A stretch of 64,000 bases of DNA from Thermoprotei archaeon (lineage in GTDB: Archaea > Thermoproteota > Thermoprotei > Thermoproteales > B15-G16), in contig QMRC01000006.1 of NCBI GenBank assembly GCA_003649205.1, positions 1-64,000 of the forward strand, read 5' to 3'. Both the position numbers and the translations under genes were made by a program. Shown one piece after another: positions 4,282 to 59,746 of this stretch (positions are counted from its first letter, which is position 1; every line of letters begins with the position of its first letter). A model generated the notes under the pieces. It had not been told where the DNA came from and made no database searches. It saw nothing but the letters and a program-made list of their open reading frames with translations.

Positions 4282-4347
4282 AGCGGGTGAGGGGAGTTCA
4301 CTAAATAAAAACTTTATCTCTTTTAATTAGGAAATGGGGTTGGGAAT

Positions 4348-10449: not shown

Positions 10450-10485
10450 GTTAAGCCACCTGATAGTTAACAGGTGAGGACTTAC

Positions 10486-45422: not shown

Positions 45423-46763
45423 GTGCACTTTATGAGATTTGGAGAGAAGCTAGGTGCGCTCTTAATGGTTGAAGCTGCATTTGCTGGAGCATACGTTAGC
45501 ATTACTCGTGGTTTCTTCTACTTGATGATGGTTGAACGTGGTTATAGTGTTAGGGATCTAGCTGTAGTTAGCCTAGTGGCTTCACTATCTATGGTGCTTG
45601 TGAGCTACCTACTGTACAGGAGACCTGAGCTACTTGAGAGAAGCGTCAAGGTTAAACTCCTCACCATGCACATACTCGAGAGAATTTTCTGGTGCATTCT
45701 ACCATTCATAGTGTTTAGATTTAGCTACATGTTTATCCTCCTAGCTTACTCACTAGCACAGGTCATTACTGTACCTGTGTGCGTGCTGCTGAATACTGTG
45801 TTACTCTCTCAGCTAAGTGAGGACGAGTTCAAGAGCGTTACTGGGTGGAGGAATTCCCTTGGCCTAATCTCGTCATTAAGTGCTCAGCTATTGGCGGTCC
45901 ACGTGTTAGCATCTATGAGGAGTCCAGTACGGTACTACTACCTTTACACAATTGCTCTACTCCTTGGCTTCCTCTCATGGATTCCACTTACTATTGCTAG
46001 AGTTAGGGACTATGTGAGGAAGGTTAGTGGTTACTCTAGTGAGGAGGTTGAGGTTATTGCTGGTACTACGTTCATATACTTGGTCCTTCTACTTGGATCA
46101 GCTAACATGCTCAGCATCCTCTGGGTACCATATCTGGTGAATGACCTAGGTGCACCGAGCTACCTAGTAGCTATCATGAACGCTGCTGGTACGATCTCTG
46201 GTTCCATATCGTCAGTTCTCTGGATTAGAGTTGTGTACAGGTACTATCTCTGTGGACTAGTTATTGACTCAGCTGTACCAACCTTAGTCATGACATTACC
46301 ACCAATATTCCATCCAGCTCTAGCTGGGCTCTCAGCTTTTGGCTTTACAGCAGGTAACTTCATTGGCTACTTCATGTACTCGAAGATAGCGGAGAAAAGC
46401 GACCCCATAAAGAACTCCACTAGGTTAGCTGCTGCTAATGCACTGGGTCTCCTAATATCATTGATACCAGTTGCTATCTTGAATTTGAGCGCTAGGGATG
46501 GACTAATTCTCTGTAGTTGCTTGAAGGTACTAGCTCTCGTAATTGCTCTGCTGAGTATTAAGGAAGTATCGCCACTTCCTGATCCACGTATCAGGACTTA
46601 TAGTAAGGTAATCTTCGAGACAGGTATGTTCTCATACAGGTTAACGCTCGAATTCACTACTCACTACGTACTATATACCTTGAAGATAGTAGCTGTTGTC
46701 CTTATAATGCTCTTCATGTACTTCATCTACAGGACAGTTACCATACTGATTAGTGGTGCGTAG
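45423..46763 (+). CDS. MFS-like multi-pass membrane protein
   Basis: About 12 hydrophobic segments. Confidence 0.7.
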   Translation: MHFMRFGEKLGALLMVEAAFAGAYVSITRGFFYLMMVERGYSVRDLAVVSLVASLSMVLVSYLLYRRPELLERSVKVKLLTMHILERIFWCILPFIVFRFSYMFILLAYSLAQVITVPVCVLLNTVLLSQLSEDEFKSVTGWRNSLGLISSLSAQLLAVHVLASMRSPVRYYYLYTIALLLGFLSWIPLTIARVRDYVRKVSGYSSEEVEVIAGTTFIYLVLLLGSANMLSILWVPYLVNDLGAPSYLVAIMNAAGTISGSISSVLWIRVVYRYYLCGLVIDSAVPTLVMTLPPIFHPALAGLSAFGFTAGNFIGYFMYSKIAEKSDPIKNSTRLAAANALGLLISLIPVAILNLSARDGLILCSCLKVLALVIALLSIKEVSPLPDPRIRTYSKVIFETGMFSYRLTLEFTTHYVLYTLKIVAVVLIMLFMYFIYRTVTILISGA

Positions 46764-47424
46764 TATGGAGTTATTGAACATGAGCAATGGCGAGGTAGCA
46801 TTTGAGAGAATAATTCAAGCATTTAAGTTGGCACTAAATGAATTGATAGCACTGGTACCTGTAGTACTAGCATCTGTCCTCATAGTTGCACTCATGCTAG
46901 TAATTGCTAAGTACGTAGGTTCTCTTGTCAAGAGGATACTGAAGGTAGTTGGTCTAGATAGGATACTTGAGAGGTACGTAGGTACACCACCGATATCTGT
47001 CGAGAACTTCATCGTCGTATTCATACAGCTGGGCTTCGTAATACTTGGCGTAACAATATCCGTGACAGTATTCGCACCTGAGTACCTAGCTACCTACAAC
47101 ATGTACCTATCCTATATACTGAGGTTGATGTCGGCTGTAGCACTCATAATAATAACGCTCTTCTGGATAGAGGTACTAGTGAATAAGATTCGTGGTGAGA
47201 GCAAGGTAAAGGCATTTGCCTCACTAATAGCCTTCCTCCTAATACTCACCTTCATAATCGACGTAACAGCACTATCTGAAAGCGTTAAGTCATCACTCGT
47301 ATTCGGAATATCCCTTGGACTTGGATTGACAATAGGAGTATTCTCCATATGGTACTTCATGCATGAATACCTTGAGCACTACATCAGCAGAAAGCATGGA
47401 GAGAAAGAGGTCAGACAAGGCTGA
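46753..47424 (+). CDS. Membrane protein with MscS-associated TM-helix-like region; 3' end overlaps attL
   Basis: Multiple TMs, KRILKVVGLD; its stop codon is the last 3 nt of the 17-bp repeat. Confidence 0.7.
   Translation: MVRSMELLNMSNGEVAFERIIQAFKLALNELIALVPVVLASVLIVALMLVIAKYVGSLVKRILKVVGLDRILERYVGTPPISVENFIVVFIQLGFVILGVTISVTVFAPEYLATYNMYLSYILRLMSAVALIIITLFWIEVLVNKIRGESKVKAFASLIAFLLILTFIIDVTALSESVKSSLVFGISLGLGLTIGVFSIWYFMHEYLEHYISRKHGEKEVRQG
47408..47424 (+). repeat. attL direct repeat AGGTCAGACAAGGCTGA
   Basis: Identical to 58195-58211; 10 nt upstream of the integrase ATG. Confidence 0.92.
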
Positions 47425-47434
47425 TTGAGTTCTC

Positions 47435-48598
47435 ATGGAAGAAATCACACCTGATAGCCCTATCTATCAGGTGAGAATAGGTCTCAATTCGATGGAGTTG
47501 CTGAAGCACTTTGAGAGTTGGTTAATTGCTCAGAACCTGTCCGTGGCTACGGTTAGGTCTCATGTTAGACAGGTTAGGTCTTTCCTCACGTGGTTTGGTA
47601 GGTCTATCGAGGATTTGAGTAGTTTCGATATTGCGTGTTACCTAGCTGAGTGCCGTAAGCGTGGTCTATCTGAGGCTAGTGTGAATCGCTATGCTTCTGC
47701 TCTCAAGAAATTCCTGAGGTTCCTAGCTAGTTACTTCAGAGCTAGGAGAAGGGTTGAGTTAGCTAATTACTTTGAGCAGGTGTACCGTGAGGTCAAGGTA
47801 CCTAAGTACGACCTAGTTGAGGTCAGCATTAAGCGACACATGGAGCCTGATACAGCGAGGAAAGTCATAGACTTAATTCATGACCCCTACTGGAAGTGCT
47901 TTTTCGCTGTGCTGTATGAGACAGGTCTGAGGTTGAGGGAGCTTAGACAGGTCAAGGTAAGTGATGTTCACGAGAACAAGCACGGGTTCGAGATAGTTGT
48001 CAGAGATAGCAAGACACCTGAGGGAGTTAGGAAAGTGTACGTGGTTGAGTACTATCAGCTACTGAGGTACTACCTAGAGCATGTACGTCCGAGAGATAGC
48101 GAGTGGTTGTTCCCTGCTAGGAGAGACCCAAGGCAACCAATCTCCGAGAAAGCAATCTACAGCTTTCTAAACCGCTTCAGAAAGCGGACAGGTATCGTGA
48201 TTAGTCCACACCGCTTTAGACACGCTAGAGCTACTGAGCTTTACCGCAAGGGAGTATCTGAGCAGTCGTTAATGAGGTTGTTTGGTTGGAGGACAAGGAC
48301 AATGATTGATGTCTACAGTAAGCTTTCACAGCGAGATGTGGAGTCTGAGCTACTGAGCAAGGTCTACGGGCTATCCCCTGTAGAGAGTGAGAGGTCTCAG
48401 ACTCGTAAGTGCCCGAGGTGTGGTGCTGAGGTAATACCCACAGCTAGGTACTGTCCATACTGTGGTCTAGCCCTAGATATTGCGTCAGTATTAGGCAAAG
48501 AGGAACAGGTACGGAAATACGCAGAGCTCATTGAAGCACTGCTGAGGTACCTAGAGGAACACCCAGAGTACCTGTCGAAACTATTCTCAAGGACTTAA
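47435..48598 (+). CDS. Tyrosine integrase with N-terminal SAM-like domain and C-terminal zinc ribbon
   Basis: ETGLR (R), DSKT (K), HRFRH, FGW, VYS (Y); CPRC/CPYC; not split by integration. Confidence 0.95.
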   Translation: MEEITPDSPIYQVRIGLNSMELLKHFESWLIAQNLSVATVRSHVRQVRSFLTWFGRSIEDLSSFDIACYLAECRKRGLSEASVNRYASALKKFLRFLASYFRARRRVELANYFEQVYREVKVPKYDLVEVSIKRHMEPDTARKVIDLIHDPYWKCFFAVLYETGLRLRELRQVKVSDVHENKHGFEIVVRDSKTPEGVRKVYVVEYYQLLRYYLEHVRPRDSEWLFPARRDPRQPISEKAIYSFLNRFRKRTGIVISPHRFRHARATELYRKGVSEQSLMRLFGWRTRTMIDVYSKLSQRDVESELLSKVYGLSPVESERSQTRKCPRCGAEVIPTARYCPYCGLALDIASVLGKEEQVRKYAELIEALLRYLEEHPEYLSKLFSRT

Positions 48599-48741
48599 AA
48601 GCGGACATGAAACACAGGCAGAGAACACCAAGACCCGCCCTATAGTCCAGAGGAAATGTTGCCTGAATTCAACAATAGTCTAATATGCGTATACGTGTGA
48701 GTGAACAGCGAGCGAGGTAATACACCACTTGAGGATGAATA

Positions 48742-48834
48742 GGGGCTCCTCGGGGGATGATGAAGGGCTTAGCGGAGCGACCCCGCAAGGGGGTATGGCT
48801 GGACCAGGCTAGCTGACCCCTACCCCCTCGCCCC
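48742..48834 (-). ncRNA. Provirus-encoded 93-nt structured RNA with a K-turn
   Basis: Very GC-rich; 5' GGGGC pairs 3' GCCCC; GGGGC-GA-GGGGG / CCCCC-GAG-GA-GCCCC fits the K-turn consensus; GAAACTTAAATA promoter ~25 nt upstream. Confidence 0.65.
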
Positions 48835-48870
48835 GTGATAATGGGTTATTATCACCAATATTTAAGTTTC
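48835..48870 (-). promoter_or_regulatory. TATA/BRE plus palindromic operator GTGATAAT-N5-ATTATCAC
   Basis: Perfect 8-bp inverted repeat 48835-48855 between TATA (48859-48865) and predicted TSS. Confidence 0.55.
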
Positions 48871-48942
48871 TATGCAATTACAGTGAAATTACCATGGTTA
48901 CTTTCTCGTGAGGGGGTTTAAGAACCCTTGATACGTCTTTGC

Positions 48943-49290
48943 TTAGCCTTTCTTTCTGATTAGTCCTCCTATTGCTCCTCCTATCATTGATAGGAATGCT
49001 GAGGCTAGCATCATGAATATTATTGCTAACCCTGCTAACCCACCTGCCCATGCTCCTAGGAATCCAGCTACTGAGAAGCCTAGTACTGTCAGCACTATTG
49101 CTGCTAGTATTCCTCCAATGATTCCACTGAGGAACCCTGCTGCTGCTCCTCTACCTGCTCCTCCTCCAGCTACTAGACCTGCTATGAAGCCTCCAAGTAC
49201 TGGTGCGAAGATGTGTAGTATGGGTGAGAGTACGGCTGTAGCTAACATACCTGCAAAGACACCAGCTATGAAACTCAGTACACGACCCAT
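48943..49290 (-). CDS. Gly-rich membrane protein (DUF5518-like)
   Basis: PVLGGFIAG, GAAAGFLSG, IGGAIGG. Confidence 0.75.
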   Translation of the reverse strand: MGRVLSFIAGVFAGMLATAVLSPILHIFAPVLGGFIAGLVAGGGAGRGAAAGFLSGIIGGILAAIVLTVLGFSVAGFLGAWAGGLAGLAIIFMMLASAFLSMIGGAIGGLIRKKG

Positions 49291-49560
49291 GTAGGGAAAA
49301 CCCCGAGGAAACCAGATACAGAGAGGACATAAAGCAGTTCAGAACATAGAGAGCAATGAACCTAGCAACCTCAGAGGACAGAAAACAAGAACGCTCCTCC
49401 GGTCGGTGATGAATACTTGTACTTTTCTCTCGGTGACTTTCCTCAAGGCACTAAATAAGAAATTGCTCTACTCTACAGTGGTATGGATTCTGAGGATTTT
49501 TGGATTGGTTTTCTCCTTGGTTACAGTACTGGTCTTATTCATGCGAAAAACTTAACAACT

Positions 49561-49944
49561 TCAGAACTTGTCTTCAGGCTCATTTCCTGTTCCTTCATGC
49601 TCAGTGAGTTGTTGGGTACTAGACTTAATGAGTTCTTCAGCTCTTTGGAGAAGTTCAGCGACTTCACGACCCTTCTCAGTGAGCTCAATGTACCTAAGAC
49701 CGTGCTTGGTATACGTCCTAACAAGACCGTACTGAAGACAGGTACTGAGGGCTCTGTAAGTACTGACAGGTGAGATACCGTATCTCTGAAGTTCTCTAAT
49801 GTGCATAGCTCTACCTGTTTTGTGAAGAATTAGCAGCAATTTAATTCCCGGTCTACCTAAGTCATCAGCTAGAGCTGACATTTTCCTCTGTCGTTTTCTG
49901 GTGATAAACCTAATAACGATATCTTCGAGCATTCGTAACCTCAT
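49561..49944 (-). CDS. Winged-HTH regulator (MarR/SSV1 F93-like); likely start ~49881
   Basis: STYRALSTCLQYGLV...IELTEKGREVAELL. Confidence 0.8.
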   Translation of the reverse strand: MRLRMLEDIVIRFITRKRQRKMSALADDLGRPGIKLLLILHKTGRAMHIRELQRYGISPVSTYRALSTCLQYGLVRTYTKHGLRYIELTEKGREVAELLQRAEELIKSSTQQLTEHEGTGNEPEDKF

Positions 49945-49975
49945 TCTCAGTCTATACCCGATTTAGAGGTATCAC

Positions 49976-50039
49976 GTAATAATATTACAACGCTATATCT
50001 CGAAACTGATAAATTGTTATAACGTTACAGAGTTGTAAC
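49976..50039. promoter_or_regulatory. Divergent control region with three palindromes
   Basis: GTAATAATATTAC (49976-88), GTTATAAC (50016-23), GTTACA-N4-TGTAAC (50024-39) between divergent wHTH and RHH genes. Confidence 0.55.
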
Positions 50040-50042
50040 AGG

Positions 50043-50240
50043 GTGAGAGAGGTGCCTAAGAGTAAGGTGCCTATGGTCTTGGTTACCTTCCATATCCCGA
50101 TACCACTCCTTAGAGAACTTGACAGGTTGGTGGAGGAGGGTAAGTTCCCGAGCAGGAGCGAGGCGATAAGGCACGCAATAATCCAACTCCTAGCTCGTGA
50201 GCGTCAAAGAACACAAATACACGAGGTGTTGGTAGCGTGA
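50043..50240 (+). CDS. Ribbon-helix-helix (CopG-like) regulator
   Basis: VTFHIP..LLRELDRLVEEGKFPSRSEAIRHAI. Confidence 0.9.
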   Translation: MREVPKSKVPMVLVTFHIPIPLLRELDRLVEEGKFPSRSEAIRHAIIQLLARERQRTQIHEVLVA

Positions 50241-50485
50241 CCATTGTCAACTATGTCGAGGTAATTAGGAACATCATACTCAATGCTTTGAAGGAGCATG
50301 GCTACATTAGTGACCTAGAGCTTGTTAGGGCTGTCAAAGAGGCTACGGGACTCAGCTACGTAGACTTTGCTCCCATTCTTGAGCAGGTACTGAGTGAGCT
50401 AATGAGGTCTGGCGCAATTAGACGTGTAATGTCAGCAAGCAACCCGAGAAAGGTCGAGCATGGGTGGGAGCTGTGTACACAATAA
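50237..50485 (+). CDS. Small wHTH-like proviral protein
   Basis: LEQVLSELMRSGAIRR; GTGA-coupled to the RHH gene. Confidence 0.6.
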   Translation: MTIVNYVEVIRNIILNALKEHGYISDLELVRAVKEATGLSYVDFAPILEQVLSELMRSGAIRRVMSASNPRKVEHGWELCTQ

Positions 50486-50829
50486 AGCCGAATGGATTCT
50501 ACCTCAGGTTGGTTTTGGATGCACTGAAGTACTGTGCTAGGACTGAAAGAGGCTCTATTGTGTCTATTTACCCAAAGAAAGTCGCTAAGTTAAATGGGTA
50601 CAGTGTTCGTGCATGTGGGAGGTATAGAGATGACAGTGAGGTAGAGAGGTCGCTATCCCCTGCCGAGCTATCTATCATTAGGTACTGGCTGGATTACCTC
50701 TGGGTCAATGGGCTGTGTAGCCGTGAGAAGACTAGTCGTGACAGGTGGAACTACGTATTCCCGAGGGAGAACTTGCCTAAGGCTATCAAGCTACTTGAGG
50801 AGGTGCTCAATGGTGAAGTACAAGATTGA
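50464..50829 (+). CDS. Hypothetical proviral protein
   Basis: 121 aa in coupled operon. Confidence 0.55.
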   Translation: MGAVYTIKPNGFYLRLVLDALKYCARTERGSIVSIYPKKVAKLNGYSVRACGRYRDDSEVERSLSPAELSIIRYWLDYLWVNGLCSREKTSRDRWNYVFPRENLPKAIKLLEEVLNGEVQD

Positions 50830-50950
50830 GGAGATAGTCAAGGAGTTGAAGGTTGCTCTCAGGGATAGAGAACTCAGAGAAGCATTGCTGAAGCACTTCT
50901 CCAACAACCCAAAGGCTCAAGCAATCATACTACTCCTGTCAGGTGAGTGA
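50810..50950 (+). CDS. 46-aa proviral protein (ATG at 50810)
   Basis: GAGGAGGTG RBS before ATG; MVKYKIEEIVKELK... Confidence 0.6.
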   Translation: MVKYKIEEIVKELKVALRDRELREALLKHFSNNPKAQAIILLLSGE

Positions 50951-51189
50951 GCATGATTGAGCTGAGTTTCAAGACGAAGCGGGACTTCGATAACTGGGTT
51001 AAGGCGCTGTATGACTTCGGTTCGAATCACTGTGTTGAGCCTGTCGTCATCAAGCTAGATGGTAATGACCTCTACGACAGGTACATGGTCTGCATTGTGT
51101 ACCATGCTTGGACTGAGGAAGGTGCTTACGCAGTGACCTGTCTAGCCCGCATAGTAGCGATAGTGTACAGGGAAGGTGAGCAGAAGTGA
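50947..51189 (+). CDS. Hypothetical proviral protein
   Basis: GTGA start/stop overlap, AGGTGA RBS. Confidence 0.55.
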   Translation: MSMIELSFKTKRDFDNWVKALYDFGSNHCVEPVVIKLDGNDLYDRYMVCIVYHAWTEEGAYAVTCLARIVAIVYREGEQK

Positions 51190-51368
51190 GTCGCTACCAC
51201 GGGCACAAGGTAACTATCACGATTATTGCGACAACAGGTTCTGGACTACCGACAGGTGAGCGAAAGAGCGATTTCATTAGATTCATGGTCGAGCAGGTAC
51301 TGGAACGTGAGCTTTCTAAGAGGCTCCGTGATTTCCGTGTCCTCAAAGTCATGGTGAAGGTGATGTAG
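51186..51368 (+). CDS. Hypothetical proviral protein
   Basis: GTGA overlap, AGGTGA RBS. Confidence 0.55.
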   Translation: MSRYHGHKVTITIIATTGSGLPTGERKSDFIRFMVEQVLERELSKRLRDFRVLKVMVKVM

Positions 51369-51447
51369 ATGGTTCCTGCTACTACTACCTATTCTATTTC
51401 TAGTAATTCGTTTAGACAAAATACGCGGGACATTAAACGCGGTTCAG

Positions 51448-51572
51448 ATTGGAACCAATGTTCCCTCTCAGAGGAATCATTGAAACCAATCATTGGAATC
51501 AATGTCAGTGGTATGATTGGAACCAATGATTGGAACCAATCATTCCACTCGCTTAGTCTCATTGGTTCCAAA
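51448..51572. repeat. Array of six quasi-palindromic ATTGGAACCAAT units (candidate origin or operator)
   Basis: Copies at 51448, 51479, 51492, 51516, 51529 and inverted at 51561. Confidence 0.8.
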
Positions 51573-51583
51573 AACGGAGAGAG

Positions 51584-51907
51584 GTGTTGAGTATCCCCCG
51601 AATAACTATCTACATCCATGAGAGCGATTGGGAAAAGCTGACGAAAATAGCTGAGCAGAGAGGACAATCAATGTACAGCATAGTGAAGCAAGTAGTACTT
51701 GAGTTCCTGAAGCTAAGTAACCCAATTGTTGCTCATGGTAAGCTTTCTAGGGATTTAGCTACCTGTCGGAGCATTATCAAGCGATTTGGTTGGTGTGCTC
51801 TCTGCATACATGCTGAGGTTGTTGGTGATAGGTTAGTCTGCAGAAAGACAGGCAAAGTCATAGAAAAACCCATATGGCAATGCCCACACCCCATACCCAA
51901 GGTGTAA
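51584..51907 (+). CDS. RHH protein with C-terminal Cys-rich (Zn) domain
   Basis: RITIYIHESDWEKL..IAEQRGQSMYSIVK; CALC...C...CP; GAGAGGTG RBS. Confidence 0.75.
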   Translation: MLSIPRITIYIHESDWEKLTKIAEQRGQSMYSIVKQVVLEFLKLSNPIVAHGKLSRDLATCRSIIKRFGWCALCIHAEVVGDRLVCRKTGKVIEKPIWQCPHPIPKV

Positions 51908-51983
51908 ATCATGCTTTTTACACAGCTGCAGCTGTGTAAATGATTTTTACTCACTGACAGGTGCGTAAATTTGGTGAGAATTC

Positions 51984-52352
51984 ATGTCCGAGATGGAGAA
52001 GTTAATTAGGAACCTGAACATACTGCGAAACTACTTCAGCAAGGTACCACCTGAAGTCATTGAGGCTCTCATGTACTTTGAGGATAGGTTCTTCACTGAG
52101 AAATACCATGTTGTTCGCTCTAAGACAGGTAGGGAGTATCGCTACAGGTACCTCTACATCAGGTTGAATGACTACAGGACACTAGGTTACTTCAGGATAA
52201 ATGATAGCAATGATGAATTGCTGCTACACGAAATTAGGCAGGTCAAGGCATTTTCACAAGCACTACTACAGTACATAGCAATGCTCAGACACAGCAAACT
52301 AGCAAACCTCACCAAAATTTACTCAAGGACCTTGAGTAAAAACAACCAATAA
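51984..52352 (+). CDS. Hypothetical proviral protein with a basic beta-hairpin
   Basis: HVVRSKTGREYRYRYLY; GGTGA RBS. Confidence 0.6.
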   Translation: MSEMEKLIRNLNILRNYFSKVPPEVIEALMYFEDRFFTEKYHVVRSKTGREYRYRYLYIRLNDYRTLGYFRINDSNDELLLHEIRQVKAFSQALLQYIAMLRHSKLANLTKIYSRTLSKNNQ

Positions 52353-52413
52353 CACATCAGCAATTGGGGAAATTGAATTGGGGTGATGCCCCCTGAACCT
52401 CAAGGTCTATTTC

Positions 52414-53400
52414 GTGAAGAAAACTAGGCAATACGAGGTCTATGAGGGCTCTAGGAGAATCCTCAGGACTAAGGTACATGCAAAAGCTCACGAGTACCTA
52501 TCGAAACAAATCAATTCAAGTTTTGAGTTCTACTTTGTTTGTTGCAATAGGGAGCACCTGTTAGCATGTTCACGTTTCTTTGAACTCACAGGTCGCAGGC
52601 TCAATGTGTTGATTAGTTACAACTTCATACGTGACAGGTACCTCACACAGGTGCTTCAGCAAGTTAGACCACACCTAAGCAAAGTCATGATTGATTCAGG
52701 TGCTTTCCATGTACTTATCCGCAAGGTACCCCTGGAAAAGTTCCAGAGCTACATAGGTGAGTACGTGAATTGGCTCAACAACCACACAGAGCTTTACGAC
52801 TACTGTGTCGCACCTGACGTACCCTGTGATGAACGACCCGCAGAAAAAATCCAGAAACTACCAAACAGGTACAAGATAGAGCTAACCATAGCTAACACAG
52901 TTCACTGGATAGATAGGTTGACAGACCCTCGCAAGGCTGTGGCTGTAGTTCAGGGTTATTTCGTGAATGAGTACCTGCTCTGTGCTGAGAAGCTGAAAGA
53001 ACTCGGGCTCACAACAGCAAAGACAGGTGTCGGCTCTTTATGTGTCAGGAAATACAGTAGACAACAAGCACGTGAAGTACCACAGATACTAGCTAGCATA
53101 AGACAGGTCTTACCGTCATGGGTGAAACTTCACGCATTCGGTCTTCAGCTAGATTTCTTACCGACCTGTCTCAAGTACCTACACAGCTCAGACAGTGCCT
53201 CATGGCAATTAAGTTACTCAAAGTTCAATAGGATACGAATAGCGAACCTGTCGACAGGTCAAACAGTTGAGCTTGATTTAGTTAGTCATGGCGGAGCGAG
53301 GAAAAAGAACCTAGACCAAGTCACGATATACACATACAACCTCTTAGCCTACTGGAATAGAGTTCAGCAACTAACGAGACAGGCAGCACAGACAAAATAA
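52414..53400 (+). CDS. dpdA: TGT-fold DpdA-like deazaguanine DNA transglycosylase
   Basis: IDSGAF, APDVP, VVQG, GVGS, LHAFG, SSDSASW in TGT order; no Zn-binding or PUA domain. Confidence 0.8.
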   Translation: MKKTRQYEVYEGSRRILRTKVHAKAHEYLSKQINSSFEFYFVCCNREHLLACSRFFELTGRRLNVLISYNFIRDRYLTQVLQQVRPHLSKVMIDSGAFHVLIRKVPLEKFQSYIGEYVNWLNNHTELYDYCVAPDVPCDERPAEKIQKLPNRYKIELTIANTVHWIDRLTDPRKAVAVVQGYFVNEYLLCAEKLKELGLTTAKTGVGSLCVRKYSRQQAREVPQILASIRQVLPSWVKLHAFGLQLDFLPTCLKYLHSSDSASWQLSYSKFNRIRIANLSTGQTVELDLVSHGGARKKNLDQVTIYTYNLLAYWNRVQQLTRQAAQTK

Positions 53401-53419
53401 AGTAAGTGTTGAAAACTGC

Positions 53420-54184
53420 TCAAGTCCCCATGTTCTCTATCTCATGTCCTGTAGGGTATAGGTTCAGTTTCTTTATGTACTTGTACACTGTTTGACGTGA
53501 AACACCGAGTGCTCTAGCTATATCACTTATACTGTAACCTTTCTTCAACATATCCTCAATAGTCTTCTCCCTATTAGCAGTCTGGATAGCTACCTGTAAG
53601 TCCATGAACACCTTCTCAACAAAGAGCCTCCTCATTTCCTGATACTTCACATAGATGTCGTGGTCTAGCTTAGGCACGAAGGTATCTACACCAATTTCCT
53701 TCACCACGAACTTACCCGTAGGAGTCCACGTAAACCTGTAGATGTGTGCCTCTCTCTCACCTTGCTTACTCTTCCTAATGTGTACATGTATCCAACACAT
53801 CTCACGTAGTGCTCTTAAGAGCAGGCGATAGGTAGGTACCGTGAATATGACAGCACCTGTCACAGTCCTAGCAACCTCAAGGAACTTTACAAATAGCTGA
53901 CGGTCTTCTTTAAGAAAGTCATATTTGCTTATCCACACACCAGCATCATCATAGCACAGACACTTAACACGCTTACGATACCTAAGACACTCCCTAATAA
54001 TTGGGAAAGACTGCTTAACATCGAAGAATACGTAGTTGAGAGCAGTCTCCCTACAATACAGCTCACTCAAGACCTTGATAGCGTAGGTAGTCTTACCAAC
54101 CCCTTGCTGACCCTGAATAACAATAACCTCAAATCCATTGTTCCTGAAAGCACGCTCAATTATCTTAGTTAGGACAAACGGCAT
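53420..54184 (-). CDS. P-loop ATPase with C-terminal HTH (fusellovirus B251-like)
   Basis: NNGF..IVIQGQQGVGKTTYA, YDDAGVW, IFTVP; SISDIARALGVSRQTVYKY. Confidence 0.8.
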   Translation of the reverse strand: MPFVLTKIIERAFRNNGFEVIVIQGQQGVGKTTYAIKVLSELYCRETALNYVFFDVKQSFPIIRECLRYRKRVKCLCYDDAGVWISKYDFLKEDRQLFVKFLEVARTVTGAVIFTVPTYRLLLRALREMCWIHVHIRKSKQGEREAHIYRFTWTPTGKFVVKEIGVDTFVPKLDHDIYVKYQEMRRLFVEKVFMDLQVAIQTANREKTIEDMLKKGYSISDIARALGVSRQTVYKYIKKLNLYPTGHEIENMGT

Positions 54185-54187
54185 ACC

Positions 54188-54490
54188 TCACTCCTCCTCA
54201 ATCTCCTCCTCACGACCAACAGGTATGAACCTCTTACGACCCATTACATGCGTTATAGTCCTGAAGAACTTAGCAAACGATAGCAGAGCTGAGTAACCAC
54301 GACCGCCCTCAGCTAACCTCAACTCAAGGTAAGGTATGATGAATGAGTCTCTCAAGTCCTGAAGGTTGTACCTGTCGCATATGAAGAGCAACGTAGCTAT
54401 CTTACGAGCCTCACCATACTGCAACCTAGTTAAGCGAAGTATGTTCCCCGAGGTAAGAGCCTCAATTAGTTCCTCTGACATGAGCCTCAC
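54188..54490 (-). CDS. Hypothetical proviral protein
   Basis: ~100 aa in coupled operon with ATPase; GAGGTGA RBS. Confidence 0.6.
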   Translation of the reverse strand: MRLMSEELIEALTSGNILRLTRLQYGEARKIATLLFICDRYNLQDLRDSFIIPYLELRLAEGGRGYSALLSFAKFFRTITHVMGRKRFIPVGREEEIEEE

Positions 54491-54491
54491 C

Positions 54492-54947
54492 TCACAGGTG
54501 AATGATACCGAACTTCACGAGCATGAACATGATGTACGCACCTATGATTAACCCACAAATCAGAGCAATGATGACAGGAGTAGCCCTAACAGGTACCTTC
54601 TCCGTTAGCAGAGCCCTCAGTACCTGTCCCTTGATAATCTGCGATATAGTGTCACTATCAATGTAGGGGTCTTGATATTGACCACAGAAGTACACTATCT
54701 TTCTGACAGGTGCCCACACCTTCACGTCTCTAAACACCCTAACCCTACCCCCAGCAAGCACCAGCTTCCTCTCCGGATTGAGCAATTTAGCAGGCGTAAT
54801 CTCGACATGCTTATCGTTCACGATAATAGCTATGTGCTTTGACCTGAAGATACGTCCTTCAGGTCTCGCTAGGAACATCATGATGAATGTGACAGGTATA
54901 GCTACGCAGTATATTGCGACTAGGATAGGGCTCAACATAGGGCTCAC
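54492..54947 (-). CDS. Proviral membrane protein (N- and C-terminal TM)
   Basis: Two hydrophobic segments flanking a soluble beta region. Confidence 0.65.
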   Translation of the reverse strand: MSPMLSPILVAIYCVAIPVTFIMMFLARPEGRIFRSKHIAIIVNDKHVEITPAKLLNPERKLVLAGGRVRVFRDVKVWAPVRKIVYFCGQYQDPYIDSDTISQIIKGQVLRALLTEKVPVRATPVIIALICGLIIGAYIMFMLVKFGIIHL

Positions 54948-55469
54948 CTACAGAGTCTTCTCAGCTTCAGCAATGAGCTTGTTCAGGACCTGCTCAACCC
55001 TCTCAATTCGCTTAGCTAACTCACTGAGCCTATCCTCACTATGATTTGAGCCTAGCTTACTCACGTCGATAGCGTCTAGGAATATCGAGAGCGGAACAGC
55101 AATAGCGTACTCAAACCTCTCAACCTTACCACTCTGCTCGACAGGTATCGTAACTTGCTGAGCCTCCCTCTCCCTCACCAAAATCAGAACACGGTCAGGA
55201 TTCCTAACCGCAGAGACAGGTAGCTTAGACAGGTACGGTCTCCTACCTGTCTCACTTTCGGACGTGTACGGTCTACCTCTCTGAAAGTGAAGTACTAAGC
55301 ACAGAGCACCGAGACTAGCTAGAGCAATGAAACCAACCCACTTCAGCGTAAAGACCGCTCCAGAGGATATCTTAGCAGTCAGTGGTGACAGGTATGGGTC
55401 ATACCAAATCAAGTACATGACTGCACCTGTGAGCAGTGCTGTGCTCAGGTAAAGGAAACGAGTACTCAC
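54948..55469 (-). CDS. Proviral membrane protein with C-terminal coiled coil
   Basis: Two N-terminal TMs; LSELAKRIERVEQVL. Confidence 0.65.
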   Translation of the reverse strand: MSTRFLYLSTALLTGAVMYLIWYDPYLSPLTAKISSGAVFTLKWVGFIALASLGALCLVLHFQRGRPYTSESETGRRPYLSKLPVSAVRNPDRVLILVREREAQQVTIPVEQSGKVERFEYAIAVPLSIFLDAIDVSKLGSNHSEDRLSELAKRIERVEQVLNKLIAEAEKTL

Positions 55470-55594
55470 TTACAACCCACCTCACTTATGTAAACTTTTT
55501 CACAAAAACCATAAGGTCAACTTGCGAGATATCCTGAATAATCACTGAACACGGAGCAAACCTGAGACAGGTCGAAAAGTAGGAGGTGAAGTAG

Positions 55595-55954
55595 GTGGAC
55601 ATAGACCTAGGGAACATCCTGAGAGCTGTCCTGTTTGTAGCCCTAATACCCACGCTATTCGGAGCTATAGCTGGATTCGTTGACCCTTCACTACAACCAA
55701 TGATACAGCCCCTACTCAGCCTAGTACCAATGCTCATAATCCTCAACCTAATCAAAGACCTGTTCTCAGAAGCTGGAGCAAAGGGATTCGTCAAGATATT
55801 CGATATCCTACTGCTCGTAATGATGTTACCTGTCCTAATCAACATGTTCGGAGCAGCCACAGGACAAAACGAAGCACTAGCACAAGTCTCAGGACTCCTA
55901 CAGCAACTCCTACCAATCCTACTATTCATCAAGCTCATCGAAGAGATGGTTTAG
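55595..55954 (+). CDS. Putative major capsid protein with two tandem fusellovirus VP1/VP3-like hydrophobic hairpins
   Basis: Two ~55-aa repeats, each helix(LIP/LP)-linker-helix(LLSLVPMLII / LLQQLLPILLF); strong GGAGGTGA RBS. Confidence 0.65.
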   Translation: MDIDLGNILRAVLFVALIPTLFGAIAGFVDPSLQPMIQPLLSLVPMLIILNLIKDLFSEAGAKGFVKIFDILLLVMMLPVLINMFGAATGQNEALAQVSGLLQQLLPILLFIKLIEEMV

Positions 55955-55975
55955 TTCCTTCGAGGTGATTAAGCT

Positions 55976-57730
55976 ATGAAACCCAAGCCCCTTTTTGCAA
56001 TCTTAACAGTACTCACTCTAGTGCTCATAGTGGCGGTTGTTAATGCTGGTGAGTACACGCTATACGATGTACTTCAGTACGCTCATGAGGTACATGTCTT
56101 CGGAAAGACATACAACACAGCAAGTTATGGCACCACAACTTACTCTGGGACATGGAATCTAACTGATGTTGTGTCGGGGAGGAAAGTTACATTTGGCTAC
56201 AGGCAATACCTACAAGACCCAGATAGCTCCGACACAATCGTTATTGTGTTTCAGAAGAATACAGCTATCGAGGTCGGTACTGGTAGCGGGAAGTGTGTCT
56301 ACGGTAAACCTGTCGTAATTACGTATGATACTGAAACAGGAAGGAGGACTATGTACTACATTGATGGCGGTGAACTGAAGAAAGTAGGTGAATTCACTGG
56401 TGGTACCTACGTCTACTGGAACGGTACAAAGTTATGTCAAGCACTACGTTTCAAGGACTGGTTAGATTTCCACAAGTTCTTTAACAACACATGCATGTTA
56501 ATACTCCCAGACATCACGACATACGACTACAGGATAATTGATGGGTCTTCCGAGCTATTAAAGGATAAGTGTGGTGGAAATGGTTTCCACACCCTCATTA
56601 TCTTCGGTGGTGAGTACCTAAACAAATCGATAATTGTTGAAGTTGCTGGAGCCTACGGAATCAAGAACATAACGCTCACTACAGAACTCAACACAGTCTA
56701 CACGATTGACCCAAAGCACTTGAAGTTAGCTGTGTTCACAGGTAACCTAACGGAGACGCTATCGAGGGCGAGCCAGAGCACAGAGGAAAGTACACAGGAA
56801 AGTACAACTAACACGACAAACGAGACCTCAACACCAACCACAGCACCAGAGACGAAGGTGTACAAGGTCACGATACATGTCTACGATGTGGATACCAATG
56901 AGGAAATCACATCAGCAATGGTTAAGGCGGGTTGGTTCACGAAGACAGGTTCACCTGTTACCTTTGAGTTCAAGTGGAAGGAACCACAGTGGTTACCTAT
57001 CTCAGCTAGTGCTACAGGTTACAAGTCCTTCAGCACAACTATCTGGGTCGATACCAACATGACGCTGTGGGTAGGGCTAGTCAAGGAAACCTCGAACAGC
57101 ACCGAGCAATACAGTAAATTACTGAGGCTCGGTGTCTCAATTGCGGGTGTTGGTTCAACTCCATATTGGGCTCAGGAAAACAAGACATTCACAGAGTGGG
57201 CTAATGAGGTTGAGCAGTTACTATCCTCATCACAGGCTCCTGAGGTTAAGTATGAGACTACGTGGTATGGTTTGAAGATAGTCGCTGTGAAGGTACCTTC
57301 AGGTAGACCAGCATACGGAGTAGCGACTATTGTCGCTGTTAAGAAAGGATTTCTCGGTACCCTAACATGGGAAGAAGAACTCGGTACTGTGCAAATAGTG
57401 AATGGTACGGGTTATTTCCATGTTGACTACGAGACAATCAAGAACAAGCTACAACTCAAAGAGTGGGGAGGGGAGTACTTCTACGGTTTCAAGATTGTAT
57501 GGAAGGTCGGTGACCTAGACCCAGAGGTCGAGGTTGTACCTGTCAAGAATACATGGACGCCTGTCTACATTCAGGTGAATGAGCAGACAGGAACCTACTC
57601 AGCAACAACACTACCACAGACAGCATTAACGAATGTCGGAACATCACTAACACAGATGCTCATAACCCTACTACCACTGTTCATCATATTCGCACTCATT
57701 GGAGCTATTACAGGTCGTAGAAGGCGATAG
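55976..57730 (+). CDS. Virion spike/adhesin-like glycoprotein
   Basis: Signal peptide, beta-rich domains, S/T linker, 12 N-X-S/T sequons, C-terminal TM plus RRRR. Confidence 0.7.
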   Translation: MKPKPLFAILTVLTLVLIVAVVNAGEYTLYDVLQYAHEVHVFGKTYNTASYGTTTYSGTWNLTDVVSGRKVTFGYRQYLQDPDSSDTIVIVFQKNTAIEVGTGSGKCVYGKPVVITYDTETGRRTMYYIDGGELKKVGEFTGGTYVYWNGTKLCQALRFKDWLDFHKFFNNTCMLILPDITTYDYRIIDGSSELLKDKCGGNGFHTLIIFGGEYLNKSIIVEVAGAYGIKNITLTTELNTVYTIDPKHLKLAVFTGNLTETLSRASQSTEESTQESTTNTTNETSTPTTAPETKVYKVTIHVYDVDTNEEITSAMVKAGWFTKTGSPVTFEFKWKEPQWLPISASATGYKSFSTTIWVDTNMTLWVGLVKETSNSTEQYSKLLRLGVSIAGVGSTPYWAQENKTFTEWANEVEQLLSSSQAPEVKYETTWYGLKIVAVKVPSGRPAYGVATIVAVKKGFLGTLTWEEELGTVQIVNGTGYFHVDYETIKNKLQLKEWGGEYFYGFKIVWKVGDLDPEVEVVPVKNTWTPVYIQVNEQTGTYSATTLPQTALTNVGTSLTQMLITLLPLFIIFALIGAITGRRRR

Positions 57731-57733
57731 AGC

Positions 57734-58036
57734 ATGACTAACCGCTACGTCTACCTTGGAAAGAAAGTGAAGGACATAGGCAAGAAAGGACTAGACCGAC
57801 CAAGCGAGTACCTAGCAATAGCGAGAGCTATAGCACAAGACTACAAGGCTGGTAGGATAAGTAAAAAGACTGCTCACGGACGCTTTTTACTACTTTACAG
57901 GCTCGTGGATAAGAATAGCAAGCTGAAGGTACCTAAGTCAGTTAAGGAACGTCTCAAACGCAAGATTAAGGAAATCTGGATGAAGACCATTGGAGGTGGG
58001 AAGGTGGCTCGAAAGAGGAAAAGAAAGAAAAGGTAG
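57734..58036 (+). CDS. Highly basic protein, putative virion nucleoprotein (VP2 analogue)
   Basis: K/R-rich, ends RKRKRKKR; in the structural operon. Confidence 0.65.
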   Translation: MTNRYVYLGKKVKDIGKKGLDRPSEYLAIARAIAQDYKAGRISKKTAHGRFLLLYRLVDKNSKLKVPKSVKERLKRKIKEIWMKTIGGGKVARKRKRKKR

Positions 58037-58194
58037 GCTCAAGTCACATCACCTGTATGTCGCTCTAACTACCTAATTTCTTGAGCTTGCTCTAGTCCTC
58101 AAGAATTCTTTACACATGTCTCATGTCCTGCGACCTGTCACCTAGACCTGAACTAGCTCAAGACAGAAGGTGGGTGACTTCTCTCAACTTATTT

Positions 58195-58211
58195 AGGTCA
58201 GACAAGGCTGA
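58195..58211 (+). repeat. attR direct repeat AGGTCAGACAAGGCTGA
   Basis: Identical to 47408-47424. Confidence 0.92.
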
Positions 58212-58246
58212 ATTCTTCACGGATCTGCCTCGCCTGGGCTCATCAT
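58198..58246 (-). ncRNA. Box C/D sRNA predicted to target 16S rRNA; integration target of the provirus
   Basis: ATGATGA, guide GCCCAGGCGAGG, CAGA, tcc, GTGAAGA, guide ATTCAGCCTTGT, CTGA; guides complementary to conserved archaeal 16S CGCCUGGG and GCAAGGCUGAA. Confidence 0.88.
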
Positions 58247-58290
58247 AAAGCAGCCAATTACCTACTCTCGAGACCCTCTAATAAAGATCA

Positions 58291-59049
58291 CTAATCAGCA
58301 ATCACATACCTAACCTCACCAGTGAAGCACCACTCACTCTCATCACTACGTTTGAGATCCACATCTACACACTTCTGCTGAAGATACAGTATTAGTTCTC
58401 GACTCGGGATTGCCTCACTAGGTAGTGAATCAAGAACACGTCTATACTGTACAGCTATGATTCCATCGAAGTACTTACTTAGCTCCTCAACTGACTCAAC
58501 AACCTTACTCTCTGGAATTAACTCAATACCGAAGAGGATGTAAGCAATGAAGCTAACCTCATCACCATAAACTTCACGACATTTCTCCCTAAGAGCATTC
58601 AACCTCACAATCTCACTCTGAGGAATACCCTTACACAACACAGCATTTCTCAGGTACTCATCCCAAACCTCAATACCAACCCTAATAACGAGCCTACTAG
58701 GTTTAAGCAGCTCAAGCACCTGTCTCACAGAGTCAAAACTTAGGTACTCAGGTCTAGACTCAATATCCACAATTCTACCACAGGTAAATCTAGAGAGCTT
58801 GAGCACGGTATCCAGAGGTAGCTCAAAGAATGAACCACCATTAAATACAGTAATTCTCTCAATACTAAACCTCAGGGTAGCATCTTCCAGAAGCGACAAT
58901 ATCTTGTCATTTGTCTGAATTACATCGGATAGTGAGTTACCTGCCTCAAGGAAGAAGGGACAGAAGACACATCTACCCCAACGACATCTAAATCCCTTGA
59001 GTATCACGATAGCTCTCTTCCTAGATCTCTCAATCACAACACCTAGCAC
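58291..59049 (-). CDS. Radical SAM protein, RaSEA/TIGR01210-like (archaeosine pathway), compact
   Basis: CRWGRCVFC, FNGGSFF, ESRPEY, GIE, LCKG. Confidence 0.7.
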   Translation of the reverse strand: MLGVVIERSRKRAIVILKGFRCRWGRCVFCPFFLEAGNSLSDVIQTNDKILSLLEDATLRFSIERITVFNGGSFFELPLDTVLKLSRFTCGRIVDIESRPEYLSFDSVRQVLELLKPSRLVIRVGIEVWDEYLRNAVLCKGIPQSEIVRLNALREKCREVYGDEVSFIAYILFGIELIPESKVVESVEELSKYFDGIIAVQYRRVLDSLPSEAIPSRELILYLQQKCVDVDLKRSDESEWCFTGEVRYVIAD

Positions 59050-59746
59050 TGAGAATCTCCCTCAAACCACTAATTAACTTACTCAAACTAGTTGGAGTTA
59101 TGAGTATGAGATCTGGATCATCGTAGTAACCACCTAGAGATACCTCATCAAGCTCATGAGGAGGTACCTCATTAACTCTCGCAGCTAAGTTCTTAACCTC
59201 AATACCTAGCATGGAACAAGCACGCTCTAGAGCAGCATAGCTATCTGAATCCCACCTTAGATACGACACAAAGCACTCATAATAACTCCTAAATCTACTC
59301 AGGAACAATCTCAATCTCTCACAGGTAACCTCCCTATAGAGTACCTTCACTTCACTAGTTTCATACTTAGGATTCCAGTCATACGCACAATAGGGGTAGT
59401 ACTCTTCAAGCTCTCTCGGTACGATACCGGCATTCGTTATAATGACTTGATGAATATCCTCGTAGTACCTACCTAACGACTTCAAAGCCCTAATTATGAA
59501 GTAGTGTATGTAGGATTGAGAGTACGGCTTACCGTAAGCACATGGTAGGAAGAGACAGACTCTATACCTCTTCCTTGGCTTCCACTCAGTTAGTAATCTC
59601 TTAAAACCCTCTTCAAAGAATGGGTGCTTAAGGTACCTAAGACCTACACCTCTGAGGAATTCCCTACCATCACCAGACCAGATAAGTTCGTGACCATCCC
59701 AAATAACGTACAAGCTAGATCCCTCAAGAAGTTCTCCACAAACCAA
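59030..59746 (-). CDS. Stand-alone ArcS core-like (DUF5591) protein
   Basis: LFLPCAYGKPYSQSYIH, GIVPRELE..YP..YD; no TGT-like or PUA domain. Confidence 0.75.
   Translation of the reverse strand: MVCGELLEGSSLYVIWDGHELIWSGDGREFLRGVGLRYLKHPFFEEGFKRLLTEWKPRKRYRVCLFLPCAYGKPYSQSYIHYFIIRALKSLGRYYEDIHQVIITNAGIVPRELEEYYPYCAYDWNPKYETSEVKVLYREVTCERLRLFLSRFRSYYECFVSYLRWDSDSYAALERACSMLGIEVKNLAARVNEVPPHELDEVSLGGYYDDPDLILITPTSLSKLISGLREILSARCCD

Follow-up and report, generated by a model that had tools for sequence, protein, structure and literature searches.

The uptake sequences of Neisseria (DNA uptake sequence, DUS) and Haemophilus (uptake signal sequence, USS) are dispersed self-tags that are carried by whole cellular genomes and read by the competence machinery through one dedicated DNA-binding protein, which serves to distinguish own from foreign DNA. 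Among viruses, lambdoid phages without recombinases over-represent Chi, according to the portions cited here of Bobay, Touchon and Rocha 2013 (PMC3784561). In the pleolipovirus HRPV-3, single-strand discontinuities are linked to the word GCCCA, of which 27 sites are given in the cited portions of Sencilo et al. 2012 (PMC3384331). Here we describe a heptamer, GACAGGT (ACCTGTC on the opposite strand), that is dispersed through a provirus integrated in a 64-kb stretch of DNA (contig QMRC01000006.1) of a Thermoprotei archaeon from a hot vent, referred to below as the window. The word is a selection-maintained site on double-stranded DNA, and it is private to this provirus lineage.

Enrichment of GACAGGT and selection at the DNA level

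An exact search of the window, counting both strands, returned 50 copies of GACAGGT/ACCTGTC. Dinucleotide-preserving shuffles of the window (n = 100) gave a mean of 11.73 copies (sd 3.77, maximum 22), and none of the 100 reached 50. Thirty-eight copies start at 47535-58133, between the attachment repeats of the provirus, and 12 lie in the remaining 53 kb. Both recounts agree with the initial annotation of this DNA, which had reported 38 copies between the att sites and about a dozen in the 53 kb of host DNA. Every position that it named, from 47535 to 58133 and including the abutting copies at 53246 and 53253, is present in the exact-match list. Its uniform expectation of about 1.3 copies is arithmetically correct (2 x 10,770 / 16,384), although the 1.7 copies expected from the host frequency of the word are the fairer figure.

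The window corresponds to C6:1-64000 of a 94%-complete assembly of 2,066,741 bp in 31 contigs. The whole assembly contains 363 copies (0.176 per kb), and 325 of them lie outside the provirus in about 2.06 Mb. At 3.5 copies per kb the provirus has about twenty times the density of the host (0.18 per kb). When the whole 2.07-Mb assembly was scanned, the only 5-kb windows with at least six copies were those overlapping the provirus, so the enrichment is not a genome-wide property of the host. With 38 copies observed and 1.7 expected from the host frequency, GACAGGT is a clear outlier among all 7-mers. Under an order-2 expectation it reaches z = 19.5, whereas the highest z in 40 order-3 Markov simulations is 9.0. 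In 60 host segments and in all other loci, the strongest 7-mers score near 6-8, the exceptions being CRISPR arrays, paired operator repeats and a 12-copy CTGCAGC in locus L061. An order-5 expectation (45 x 58 / 81 = 32) is uninformative because the motif dominates its own sub-words. In the host the motif rate about equals the dinucleotide expectation (11.73 per 64 kb), i.e. the word is in neither excess nor deficit there. A reader belonging to a host-wide system is less likely for this reason, and GACAGGT does not show the host-wide over-representation seen with Chi, FtsK-orienting polar sequences (KOPS) and uptake sequences.

The excess is not produced by codon usage. Synonymous shuffling within each gene, which preserves the protein sequence and the codon usage of each gene, gave a mean of 10.2 copies (sd 2.5, maximum 18). 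Island-wide synonymous shuffling gave a mean of 8.6 (maximum 15), and permutation of codon order a mean of 4.7 (maximum 9). Each type was run 500 times without reaching 38, so that the highest value among the 1500 pooled shuffles was 18. The shuffles are conservative, since they reuse codons whose frequency the motif itself has inflated. The copies occupy all six reading frames, with 5, 4 and 9 copies in sense phases 0, 1 and 2 and 4, 5 and 8 in the corresponding antisense phases. Thus, 35 of the 38 copies lie inside open reading frames (ORFs), 18 in sense and 17 in antisense, and three are intergenic.

We also counted permissive tripeptides, i.e. those that could encode the motif through synonymous choice. 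The island proteins contain 68 of them (21.2 per 1000 amino acids), and 35 (51.5%) are realised as the motif. In 1307 host ORFs of at least 200 amino acids, permissive tripeptides occur at 7.7 per 1000 amino acids and 258 of 3773 (6.8%) are realised. They are thus 2.75 times commoner in island than in host proteins, and both supply and realisation are raised in each of the six frames. This indicates selection on codon choice as well as on amino-acid sequence. In the gene for a DpdA-like transglycosylase (52414-53400, + strand), the copy at 53022 is spelled by the codons for K-T-G; the T column is V in 8 of 10 relatives and adjoins an invariant GVGS. The copy at 53102 is spelled R-Q-V, where 6 of 10 relatives have R-Q-H. 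Motif-creating residues therefore occupy otherwise conserved columns of the DpdA-like family. Selection acts on the double-stranded DNA. The initial annotation had proposed a selected self-marking site of the provirus that recurs about every 280 bp, falls on both strands, in several frames and in intergenic DNA, and is unexplained by codon bias; the shuffles, the frame use and the tripeptide excess bear out a selected DNA-level site that is private to the provirus and not due to codon bias.

All seven positions of the word matter. The 21 single-base variants are at background, except for AACAGGT (9 copies, 2.1 expected) and GACAGGC (4 copies, 0.1 expected). There is no clear extension beyond 7 bp, as the copies are shared among the four 8-mers on either side. 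The flanks are not conserved and show weak preferences only (A at -6 in 18 of 38 copies, T at -3 in 18 and A at +1 in 17), and a longer repeat or a mobile mini-element was rejected for this reason. The gaps between copies are about Poisson (coefficient of variation, CV, 0.87), with at least one copy in every kilobase of the provirus and six gaps of at most 33 bp, where an exponential estimate gives about four. The orientation of the copies (24 plus, 14 minus) does not depart significantly from equality (binomial p = 0.14), and the best contrast between two arcs gave p = 0.50 in 2000 permutations. By a Poisson estimate, two clusters of five copies, at 53022-53259 and 55140-55393, are within chance. 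Neither strand polarity nor clustering was therefore significant. Motif density per kb is 9.6 in a 173-aa ORF, 6.1 in the DpdA-like gene, 1.7 in a 584-aa ORF and 1.3 in the ATPase gene, with no copy in the gene of a basic 100-aa protein or in 48599-49560; this spread among genes is estimated to lie within Poisson scatter. Operators and iterons form intergenic clusters, often of pairs with fixed spacing, but 35 of 38 copies lie in ORFs and the CV of the gaps is 0.87. The even spread over both strands and all frames that characterises uptake sequences is found, within the provirus only. Together, these properties describe a short, exact and asymmetric word of duplex DNA, which is read in both orientations and of which each further copy raises fitness.

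Relatives of the element and comparison with described systems

In the 2.07 Mb scanned, only one other site has at least three copies within 600 bp, C2:54013-54564. It belongs to a decayed second copy of the integrase end of the element (C2:53505-54715, loci L017-L020), which consists of integrase fragments and downstream DNA at 72-89% identity and has frame breaks and an internal deletion matching island positions 48002-48397. Four sites of the island have a homologous position in the relic and three of them are kept there; one further copy brings the relic to four in about 1.4 kb. Past the integrase stop codon, island and relic hardly differ over 240 bp.

No comparable word was found in any of 28 other loci that carry a DpdA-like gene, a B251-type ATPase or, in PAV1, a relative of the basic protein. 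Among the nine loci of at least 3 kb fetched through a DpdA-like gene, none has a 7-mer enriched beyond the null, and each has 0-6 copies of GACAGGT; L003 was additionally checked against its own simulations. The suggestion that dpdA-carrying relatives might each enrich a motif of their own was therefore not confirmed. A comparable word is likewise absent from SMF1, SSV1, APSV1 and two Archaeoglobi pleomorphic (pro)viruses, which share the ATPase, from PAV1, which shares only the relative of the basic protein, from 13 regions around ATPase homologues in 11 other genomes of the same phylum, and from the small contigs of the same assembly. SSV1 does enrich AGATAGAG (12 copies), clustered at the known early promoter region (4973-5779), and APSV1 enriches GTTAGAGA (29 copies), with 13 convergent pairs about 35 bp apart. 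In APSV1 (L025, HE580238.1), pairs of GTTAGAGA(A) are scattered over the first 26 kb (317-26324) and look like candidate binding sites of a dimeric regulator; L058 (G187) enriches this word too.

A search of 60 related genomes gave no match to the ATPase, and a word-indexed protein search returned only the protein itself. Among 20 related genomes, nothing matched the island DNA except for the relic in its own host. In a second phylum, sampled via G426, distant ATPases were found in 3 of 38 genomes. L015, a contig of a Hydrothermarchaeota metagenome-assembled genome, carries a B251-like ATPase and a distant DpdA-like gene at 4043-4639 and 10001-10609, 5.4 kb apart, and has no enriched word. The pairing of the two genes thus recurs outside this lineage without an enriched word.

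Judging from core-gene content, the element is not a fusellovirus. Of nine members of the fusellovirus absolute core (VP1, VP4, SSV-type integrase, A82, A92, B251, C166, A154 and B115; list from PMC9608457) one was found, the ATPase, which was also the sole match when 20 island ORFs were compared with SMF1 and SSV1 by tblastn. Synteny with fuselloviruses by ORF length was considered and rejected, as the ORFs of equal length (82, 121 and 151 aa) have no similarity. The SSV-type integrase has the attachment site inside its gene, whereas the integrase of the element is intact when integrated. Compared with the Archaeoglobi pleomorphic (pro)viruses, the ATPase is 25-28% and the integrase 26% identical. 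In the Pleolipoviridae, a VP3-like membrane protein, a VP4-like fusion protein and the ATPase form a conserved block. A 119-aa and a 584-aa protein of the element resemble the VP3-like and VP4-like proteins in order and topology only, with no sequence match, so that the element may or may not be related to this family.

None of 150 parsed CRISPR spacers of the host matches the island (longest match 17 of 34 nt), the parse of the C1 array being incomplete (27 spacers, with one repeat 18-mer occurring 54 times). The host has three arrays of two repeat types, at C1:269683-284071, C4:116611-121095 and C11:39659-43523. Anti-tag mimicry was rejected, as the array repeats end in ATTGAAAG or its complement, which are unrelated to the motif.

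In its behaviour GACAGGT is closest to uptake sequences and to the Chi loading of lambdoid phages. Like uptake sequences it is a short exact word, hugely over-represented and evenly spread over both strands and all frames, whose benefit scales with copy number. However, it is confined to a 10.8-kb virus and the host genome is at expectation. As with Chi in lambdoid phages, one short word is strongly enriched in a viral genome, which the cited portions of PMC3784561 read as selection to engage a DNA-processing machine. Chi, on the other hand, is the word of the host, abundant in the host and, in the same portions, concentrated between the origin and the packaging site, whereas GACAGGT is unenriched in the host and spread over the element without polarity. 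The word belongs to neither class because it has no host-wide enrichment and no polarity. An earlier idea of a Chi- or uptake-like signal is therefore unsupported in the usual sense, as is a KOPS-like one, given the unenriched host, the 24:14 orientation (p = 0.14) and the two-arc contrast (p = 0.50).

The resemblance to HRPV-3, a small membrane-enveloped archaeal virus, lies in a short asymmetric word that recurs through the genome and, in HRPV-3, is tied to a physical property of the DNA. However, GCCCA is a 5-mer for which the cited portions of PMC3384331 make no enrichment claim, and its sites follow the direction of transcription, unlike GACAGGT with its sense to antisense ratio of 18:17. 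The T5/T6 promoter repeats of SSV1 and the paired repeats of APSV1 are also over-represented short words in archaeal viruses. They are clustered at promoters or arranged as convergent pairs, whereas the copies of GACAGGT are single, randomly spaced and in 35 of 38 cases inside ORFs. Limited keyword searches of open-access literature turned up no archaeal virus described as carrying a dispersed heptamer of its own.

Candidate readers of the word

The host ignores the word, each copy brings a benefit and orientation is free; the most likely reader is therefore encoded by the element and draws its avidity from the number of sites. We regard GACAGGT as a private genome tag read by a protein of the element, most plausibly its ATPase with a helix-turn-helix (HTH) domain, a reading that we consider plausible rather than probable. 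This AAA+ ATPase of the B251 family, annotated as 'DnaA-like' in fuselloviruses such as SSV1 (53420-54184, - strand), matches phrog_5484 'DnaA-like' at 5e-41 (residues 4-208, profile positions 14-237 of 239) and has the Walker A motif GQQGVGKT. Its C-terminal HTH matches HTH_7 at 4.3e-10 (residues 205-239, domain 205-241), and resolvase/DNA invertase and terminase small-subunit families match there as well. A tblastn search matched 72 virus records, among them SMF1 (35% identity at 2e-31), SSV1 (32%), APSV1 (28%) and GacPV1 (28%).

Three considerations make the ATPase the best candidate. An asymmetric 7-bp site suits binding by a monomeric HTH. Spindle-shaped and pleomorphic archaeal viruses, which package without a terminase, have only the gene of this family in common. 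Finally, the HTH sets this ATPase apart from those of motif-free relatives: no Pfam HTH was found in SMF1_0008, GacPV1 gp07 or the two ATPase copies of G225, and the loci carrying these HTH-less homologues (SMF1, GacPV1, G225) have no dispersed motif. Some metagenomic relatives (P0021, P0027 and P0093) do have the HTH by Pfam. In the proposed mechanism, the word would mark the DNA of the element about every 280 bp for an element-encoded reader, presumably the B251-family ATPase through the HTH added at its C-terminus. One HTH would bind the asymmetric word whichever way it points, and ATPase assembly on viral DNA would start from there; with many sites, the avidity for the viral genome would be high relative to host DNA. 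This might serve genome capture for packaging into a budding particle, or initiator titration or loading for copy-number control.

Several observations weigh against the ATPase as reader. The link between HTH and motif comes from one element, and the ATPase gene itself has a single copy (1.3 per kb). There are four other DNA-binding candidates, i.e. a 127-aa winged-HTH (wHTH) protein, two ribbon-helix-helix (RHH) proteins and the basic 100-aa protein, and the element also has the DpdA-like enzyme, whose gene is among the richest in motifs (6.1 per kb). The function of the B251 family is unproven, and one review table gives Lon protease as the predicted role (PMC4124505, table portion). A single-sequence structure model of the ATPase was poor (predicted local distance difference test, pLDDT, 51). 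DpdA, the basic 100-aa protein and the ATPase-HTH had been named as candidates by the initial annotation; all three genes exist, and none of them is singled out as the user.

A second possibility, to which we give clearly less weight, is that GACAGGT is the target of the DpdA-like transglycosylase, which would swap one guanine for a 7-deazaguanine (preQ0 or a derivative). Under a narrow specificity, target sites would accumulate until the mark is dense enough to be useful, either as a road-block to translocating host nucleases or as a chemical self-mark read by another viral protein; this may hold together with reading by the ATPase, as the two are not exclusive. The 328-aa protein is borderline by profile, with 27.0 bits for PF23859 against a cut-off of 27, and for NCBIfam DpdA 9.6e-8 and 31 bits against a cut-off of 200. 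According to its structure model (pLDDT 83, predicted template modelling score, pTM, 0.86) it has the TIM-barrel fold of tRNA-guanine transglycosylases (TGT): the best Foldseek folds in the Protein Data Bank (PDB) are TGT, DpdA 7ui4 and ArcTGT 1iq8, with probability 1.0 and TM 0.5-0.6. By sequence, a profile of the family alignment A1 found no PDB chain at E <= 0.1. D94-S-G-A-F98, D129, D135 and D260 are invariant in 11 of 11 family members, and their spacing, compared without superposition, matches the catalytic D95, F99, D130 and D256 of Salmonella DpdA as given in the cited portions of PMC10164549.

As in described DpdA systems (cited portions of PMC10164549, PMC10516641, PMC7544227 and PMC10484667), which modify guanines in defined contexts, we thus have a TGT-fold protein of the DpdA family with conserved catalytic aspartates. 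Long target sites are implied by low-rate enzymes, with bDpdA and DpdA2 acting on less than 0.1% of G, and a CxGCxG-like context being the minimum for bDpdA (portions of PMC10516641 and PMC10164549). The gene itself is fully adapted to the motif, with six copies. Deazaguanine metabolism is plausible in this cell, which has two TGT-family genes (C4:52261-53241 and C11:46189-47205) and ArcS-like and RaSEA-like genes next to attR.

However, the motifs of known phage DpdAs have 2-3 bases (GA and GGC in CAjan, GA in iggy), and the cited portions of this literature describe neither a 7-bp specificity nor an enrichment of target sites. It is also unusual for a modification enzyme to cause its target sites to become enriched. 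The relatives of this gene lie in loci without enriched words: none of the nine others of at least 3 kb is enriched, including the 20.9-kb L003, with a 42% identical gene, and L015, which also has the B251-like ATPase. The protein has no recognisable extra DNA-reading domain, and the CXCX2CX22H zinc site of bacterial DpdA (PMC10164549, cited portions) is not in alignment A1, where the only invariant cysteines are C138, C190 and C210. Bacterial DpdA requires the ATPase DpdB (same portions of PMC10164549), and family searches of the element revealed no DpdB, DpdC or preQ0 synthesis genes. In the 94%-complete host assembly, the search for QueC gave partial N-terminal PP-loop matches only (positions 3-66 of 210) and no clear family member. 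A combination of both enzymes can also be envisaged, in which the DpdA-like enzyme writes 7-deazaguanine into each GACAGGT and the ATPase-HTH reads the modified word and selects the viral genome for a capsid-less, membrane-bounded particle; such a two-step epigenetic packaging signal is very improbable on present data.

Alternatively, the word could be a binding or control site for an exploited host protein, acting as a sponge or recruiter of a chromatin protein, a transcription factor or a repair nuclease. Lambdoid phages without their own recombinases provide the precedent, as they strongly over-represent Chi (cited portions of PMC3784561), and a density-dependent benefit would fit per-site selection. 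Nevertheless, we consider this unlikely, as the host genome is at expectation for the word, unlike Chi, uptake sequences and KOPS in their hosts, there is no polarity and no host site cluster except the relic of the same element, and no candidate host protein was identified. Both this explanation and a non-adaptive one fit the data poorly. Sequence-specific repair can inflate words without selection for function, as very-short-patch repair does in E. coli, and the composition of the element is slightly off that of the host (GC about 0.46 vs 0.43), but a by-product of a mutation or repair bias acting on the element only, or a fossil signature of an earlier host, is the least probable origin of all, since one exact 7-mer in 22-fold excess, with its single-base neighbours at background, goes far past what a genome signature would produce. 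Moreover, the amino-acid composition favours permissive tripeptides in all six frames, and no enzyme that could cause the bias is evident; one encoded by the host would mark the host genome too.

The integrated element and its meaning

The element body (47425-58194) measures 10,770 bp between two 17-bp direct repeats and holds all 38 clustered copies. The left repeat (attL, 47408-47424) comprises the last 17 bases, including the stop codon, of a host ORF (46753-47424) with a PF05552 match; attR is at 58195-58211. A second public metagenome, run X2, contains a related host strain with an empty attachment site: in one of its contigs 47407 continues directly at 58195, with 10,787 bp missing and 17 letters common to both sides. 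The limits of the element are thus established independently of the motif. The element is a recent, strain-variable insertion at the 3' end of the MscS-like membrane-protein gene. Run X2 holds only 0.12 of the sampled words, and low-depth pieces of a related element in it were not used as evidence. One of these low-depth contigs skips 51470-54219 (the RHH, 122-aa, DpdA-like and ATPase genes) and has 20 other letters between its sides, the shorter side being 45 nt and the likeness threshold 80%. It may come from a related element with a different middle module.

Two short genes adjoin attR on its outer side (58291-59746, - strand), one for a RaSEA-like radical-SAM protein, whose TIGR01210 score of 43 bits is far under the cut-off, and one for an ArcS-like DUF5591 protein. 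Divergent paralogues of the archaeosine pathway here lie beside a provirus with a DpdA-like gene; they belong to the host, since run X2 contigs cover them at host-like depth.

The first gene of the element encodes a 387-aa tyrosine integrase (47435-48598, +; PF00589 at 3.4e-24, PF02899, XerA-like at 7e-33) with an N-terminal SAM-like domain and a C-terminal zinc ribbon; it is intact in the integrated state. Its six motif copies are at 47535-47541 (-, antisense), 47568-47574 (+, sense), 47920-47926 (+), 47946-47952 (+), 48187-48193 (+) and 48570-48576 (-), and those starting at 47920, 47946 and 48570 are kept in the C2 relic. A 127-aa winged-HTH-type regulator (49561-49944, -; phrog_12817 at 1.5e-6) has two antisense copies, 49737-49743 and 49765-49771 (both +). 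The 65-aa candidate CopG/RHH-like repressor (50043-50240, +; phrog_4738 at 2e-5) has one at 50121-50127 (+). ORFs of 121, 80 and 60 aa follow with copies at 50740-50746 (+), at 51076-51082 (+) and 51136-51142 (-, antisense), and at 51251-51257 (+), respectively. A 107-aa RHH protein with a Cys-rich tail (51584-51907, +; PF01402 at 7.5e-4, just under the cut-off) has an antisense copy at 51761-51767 (-), and the 122-aa ORF has one at 52124-52130 (+). In the gap between these two genes, an intergenic copy at 51956-51962 (+) lies 16 bp after a perfect 24-nt palindrome (51917-51940), which is operator- or terminator-like.

The six copies of the DpdA-like gene are at 52633-52639 (+), 53022-53028 (+), 53102-53108 (+), 53164-53170 (-, antisense), 53246-53252 (-) and 53253-53259 (+), the last two abutting as the halves of a 14-bp palindrome (53246-53259). 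The gene is convergent with that of the ATPase, whose single copy (53855-53861, -) is in sense. Upstream of the ATPase gene on the same strand are three ORFs of 100, 151 and 173 aa without an assigned function (54188-55469, -), which have nine copies together. One is in the 100-aa ORF (54370-54376, -) and three are in the 151-aa ORF (54622-54628, -; 54705-54711 and 54891-54897, both + and antisense). Five are in the 173-aa ORF, where those at 55140-55146, 55215-55221, 55228-55234 and 55387-55393 (all +) are antisense and that at 55245-55251 (-) is sense. An exact inverted repeat of 20 nt, starting with the motif, connects 49737-49756 (+) with 54609-54628 (-), 4.9 kb away in an unrelated ORF. 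It is too long for chance in 10.8 kb and is absent from IMG/VR.

In the divergent region that follows there is an intergenic copy at 55566-55572 (+). A candidate hydrophobic membrane protein of 119 aa (55595-55954, +), recognised by reading its sequence directly and without a family, has an antisense copy at 55828-55834 (-). The 584-aa candidate envelope or spike protein (55976-57730, +) has a hydrophobic N-terminus and, at its C-terminus, a hydrophobic stretch followed by RRRR; it has no relatives in IMG/VR, phage records or Atlas. Its gene has three copies, 56308-56314 (-, antisense), 56944-56950 (+, sense) and 57538-57544 (-, antisense). The basic 100-aa protein (57734-58036, +), with no motif copy in its gene, has relatives in PAV1 (ORF89, L027 11331-11510, 57% over 60 aa) and APSV1 (orf31, L025 22665-22799, 51% over 45 aa). 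By these similarities it is a small basic protein common to spindle-shaped viruses of three archaeal orders. The last copy, at 58133-58139 (-), is intergenic, 56 bp before attR.

A hexamer, GAGCCT/AGGCTC, is also over-represented (20 copies in 47843-58040, 3.25 expected, 6-fold). It was rejected as a second motif of the same kind, as about 16 of the 20 copies put AGGCTC on the coding strand, and it probably reflects a codon or dipeptide effect. For structured RNA, there was no Rfam match below E 0.3 in 47300-58400, and a GC-rich stretch at 48700-48900 folds no better than its shuffles (z = -0.41).

These results suggest that GACAGGT is a selected mark with the meaning "this DNA is mine". Cellular genomes have dispersed words that mark them as self (uptake sequences, Chi and KOPS), and some phages make use of such a word in the Chi of their host; a word private to a small virus would differ from these. 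Here the word is selected hard enough to reshape proteins in all six frames while the host ignores it. If the DpdA-like enzyme were its user, this would be the longest DpdA specificity known and the first genome evolving towards, and not away from, a modification site. If the enzyme wrote a mark that the ATPase reads, the word would serve as a chemical address label peculiar to the virus, and deazaguanine in DNA would for the first time be known in a positive role outside defence. Applied to viral databases, the same k-mer screen could show whether private tags are frequent. Spindle-shaped and pleomorphic archaeal viruses lack both terminase and portal, their universally conserved B251-type ATPase has an unproven role, and the way in which they select a genome for packaging is an open question. 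The 38 identical copies of the word and the small number of candidate readers make this question accessible to ordinary binding assays.

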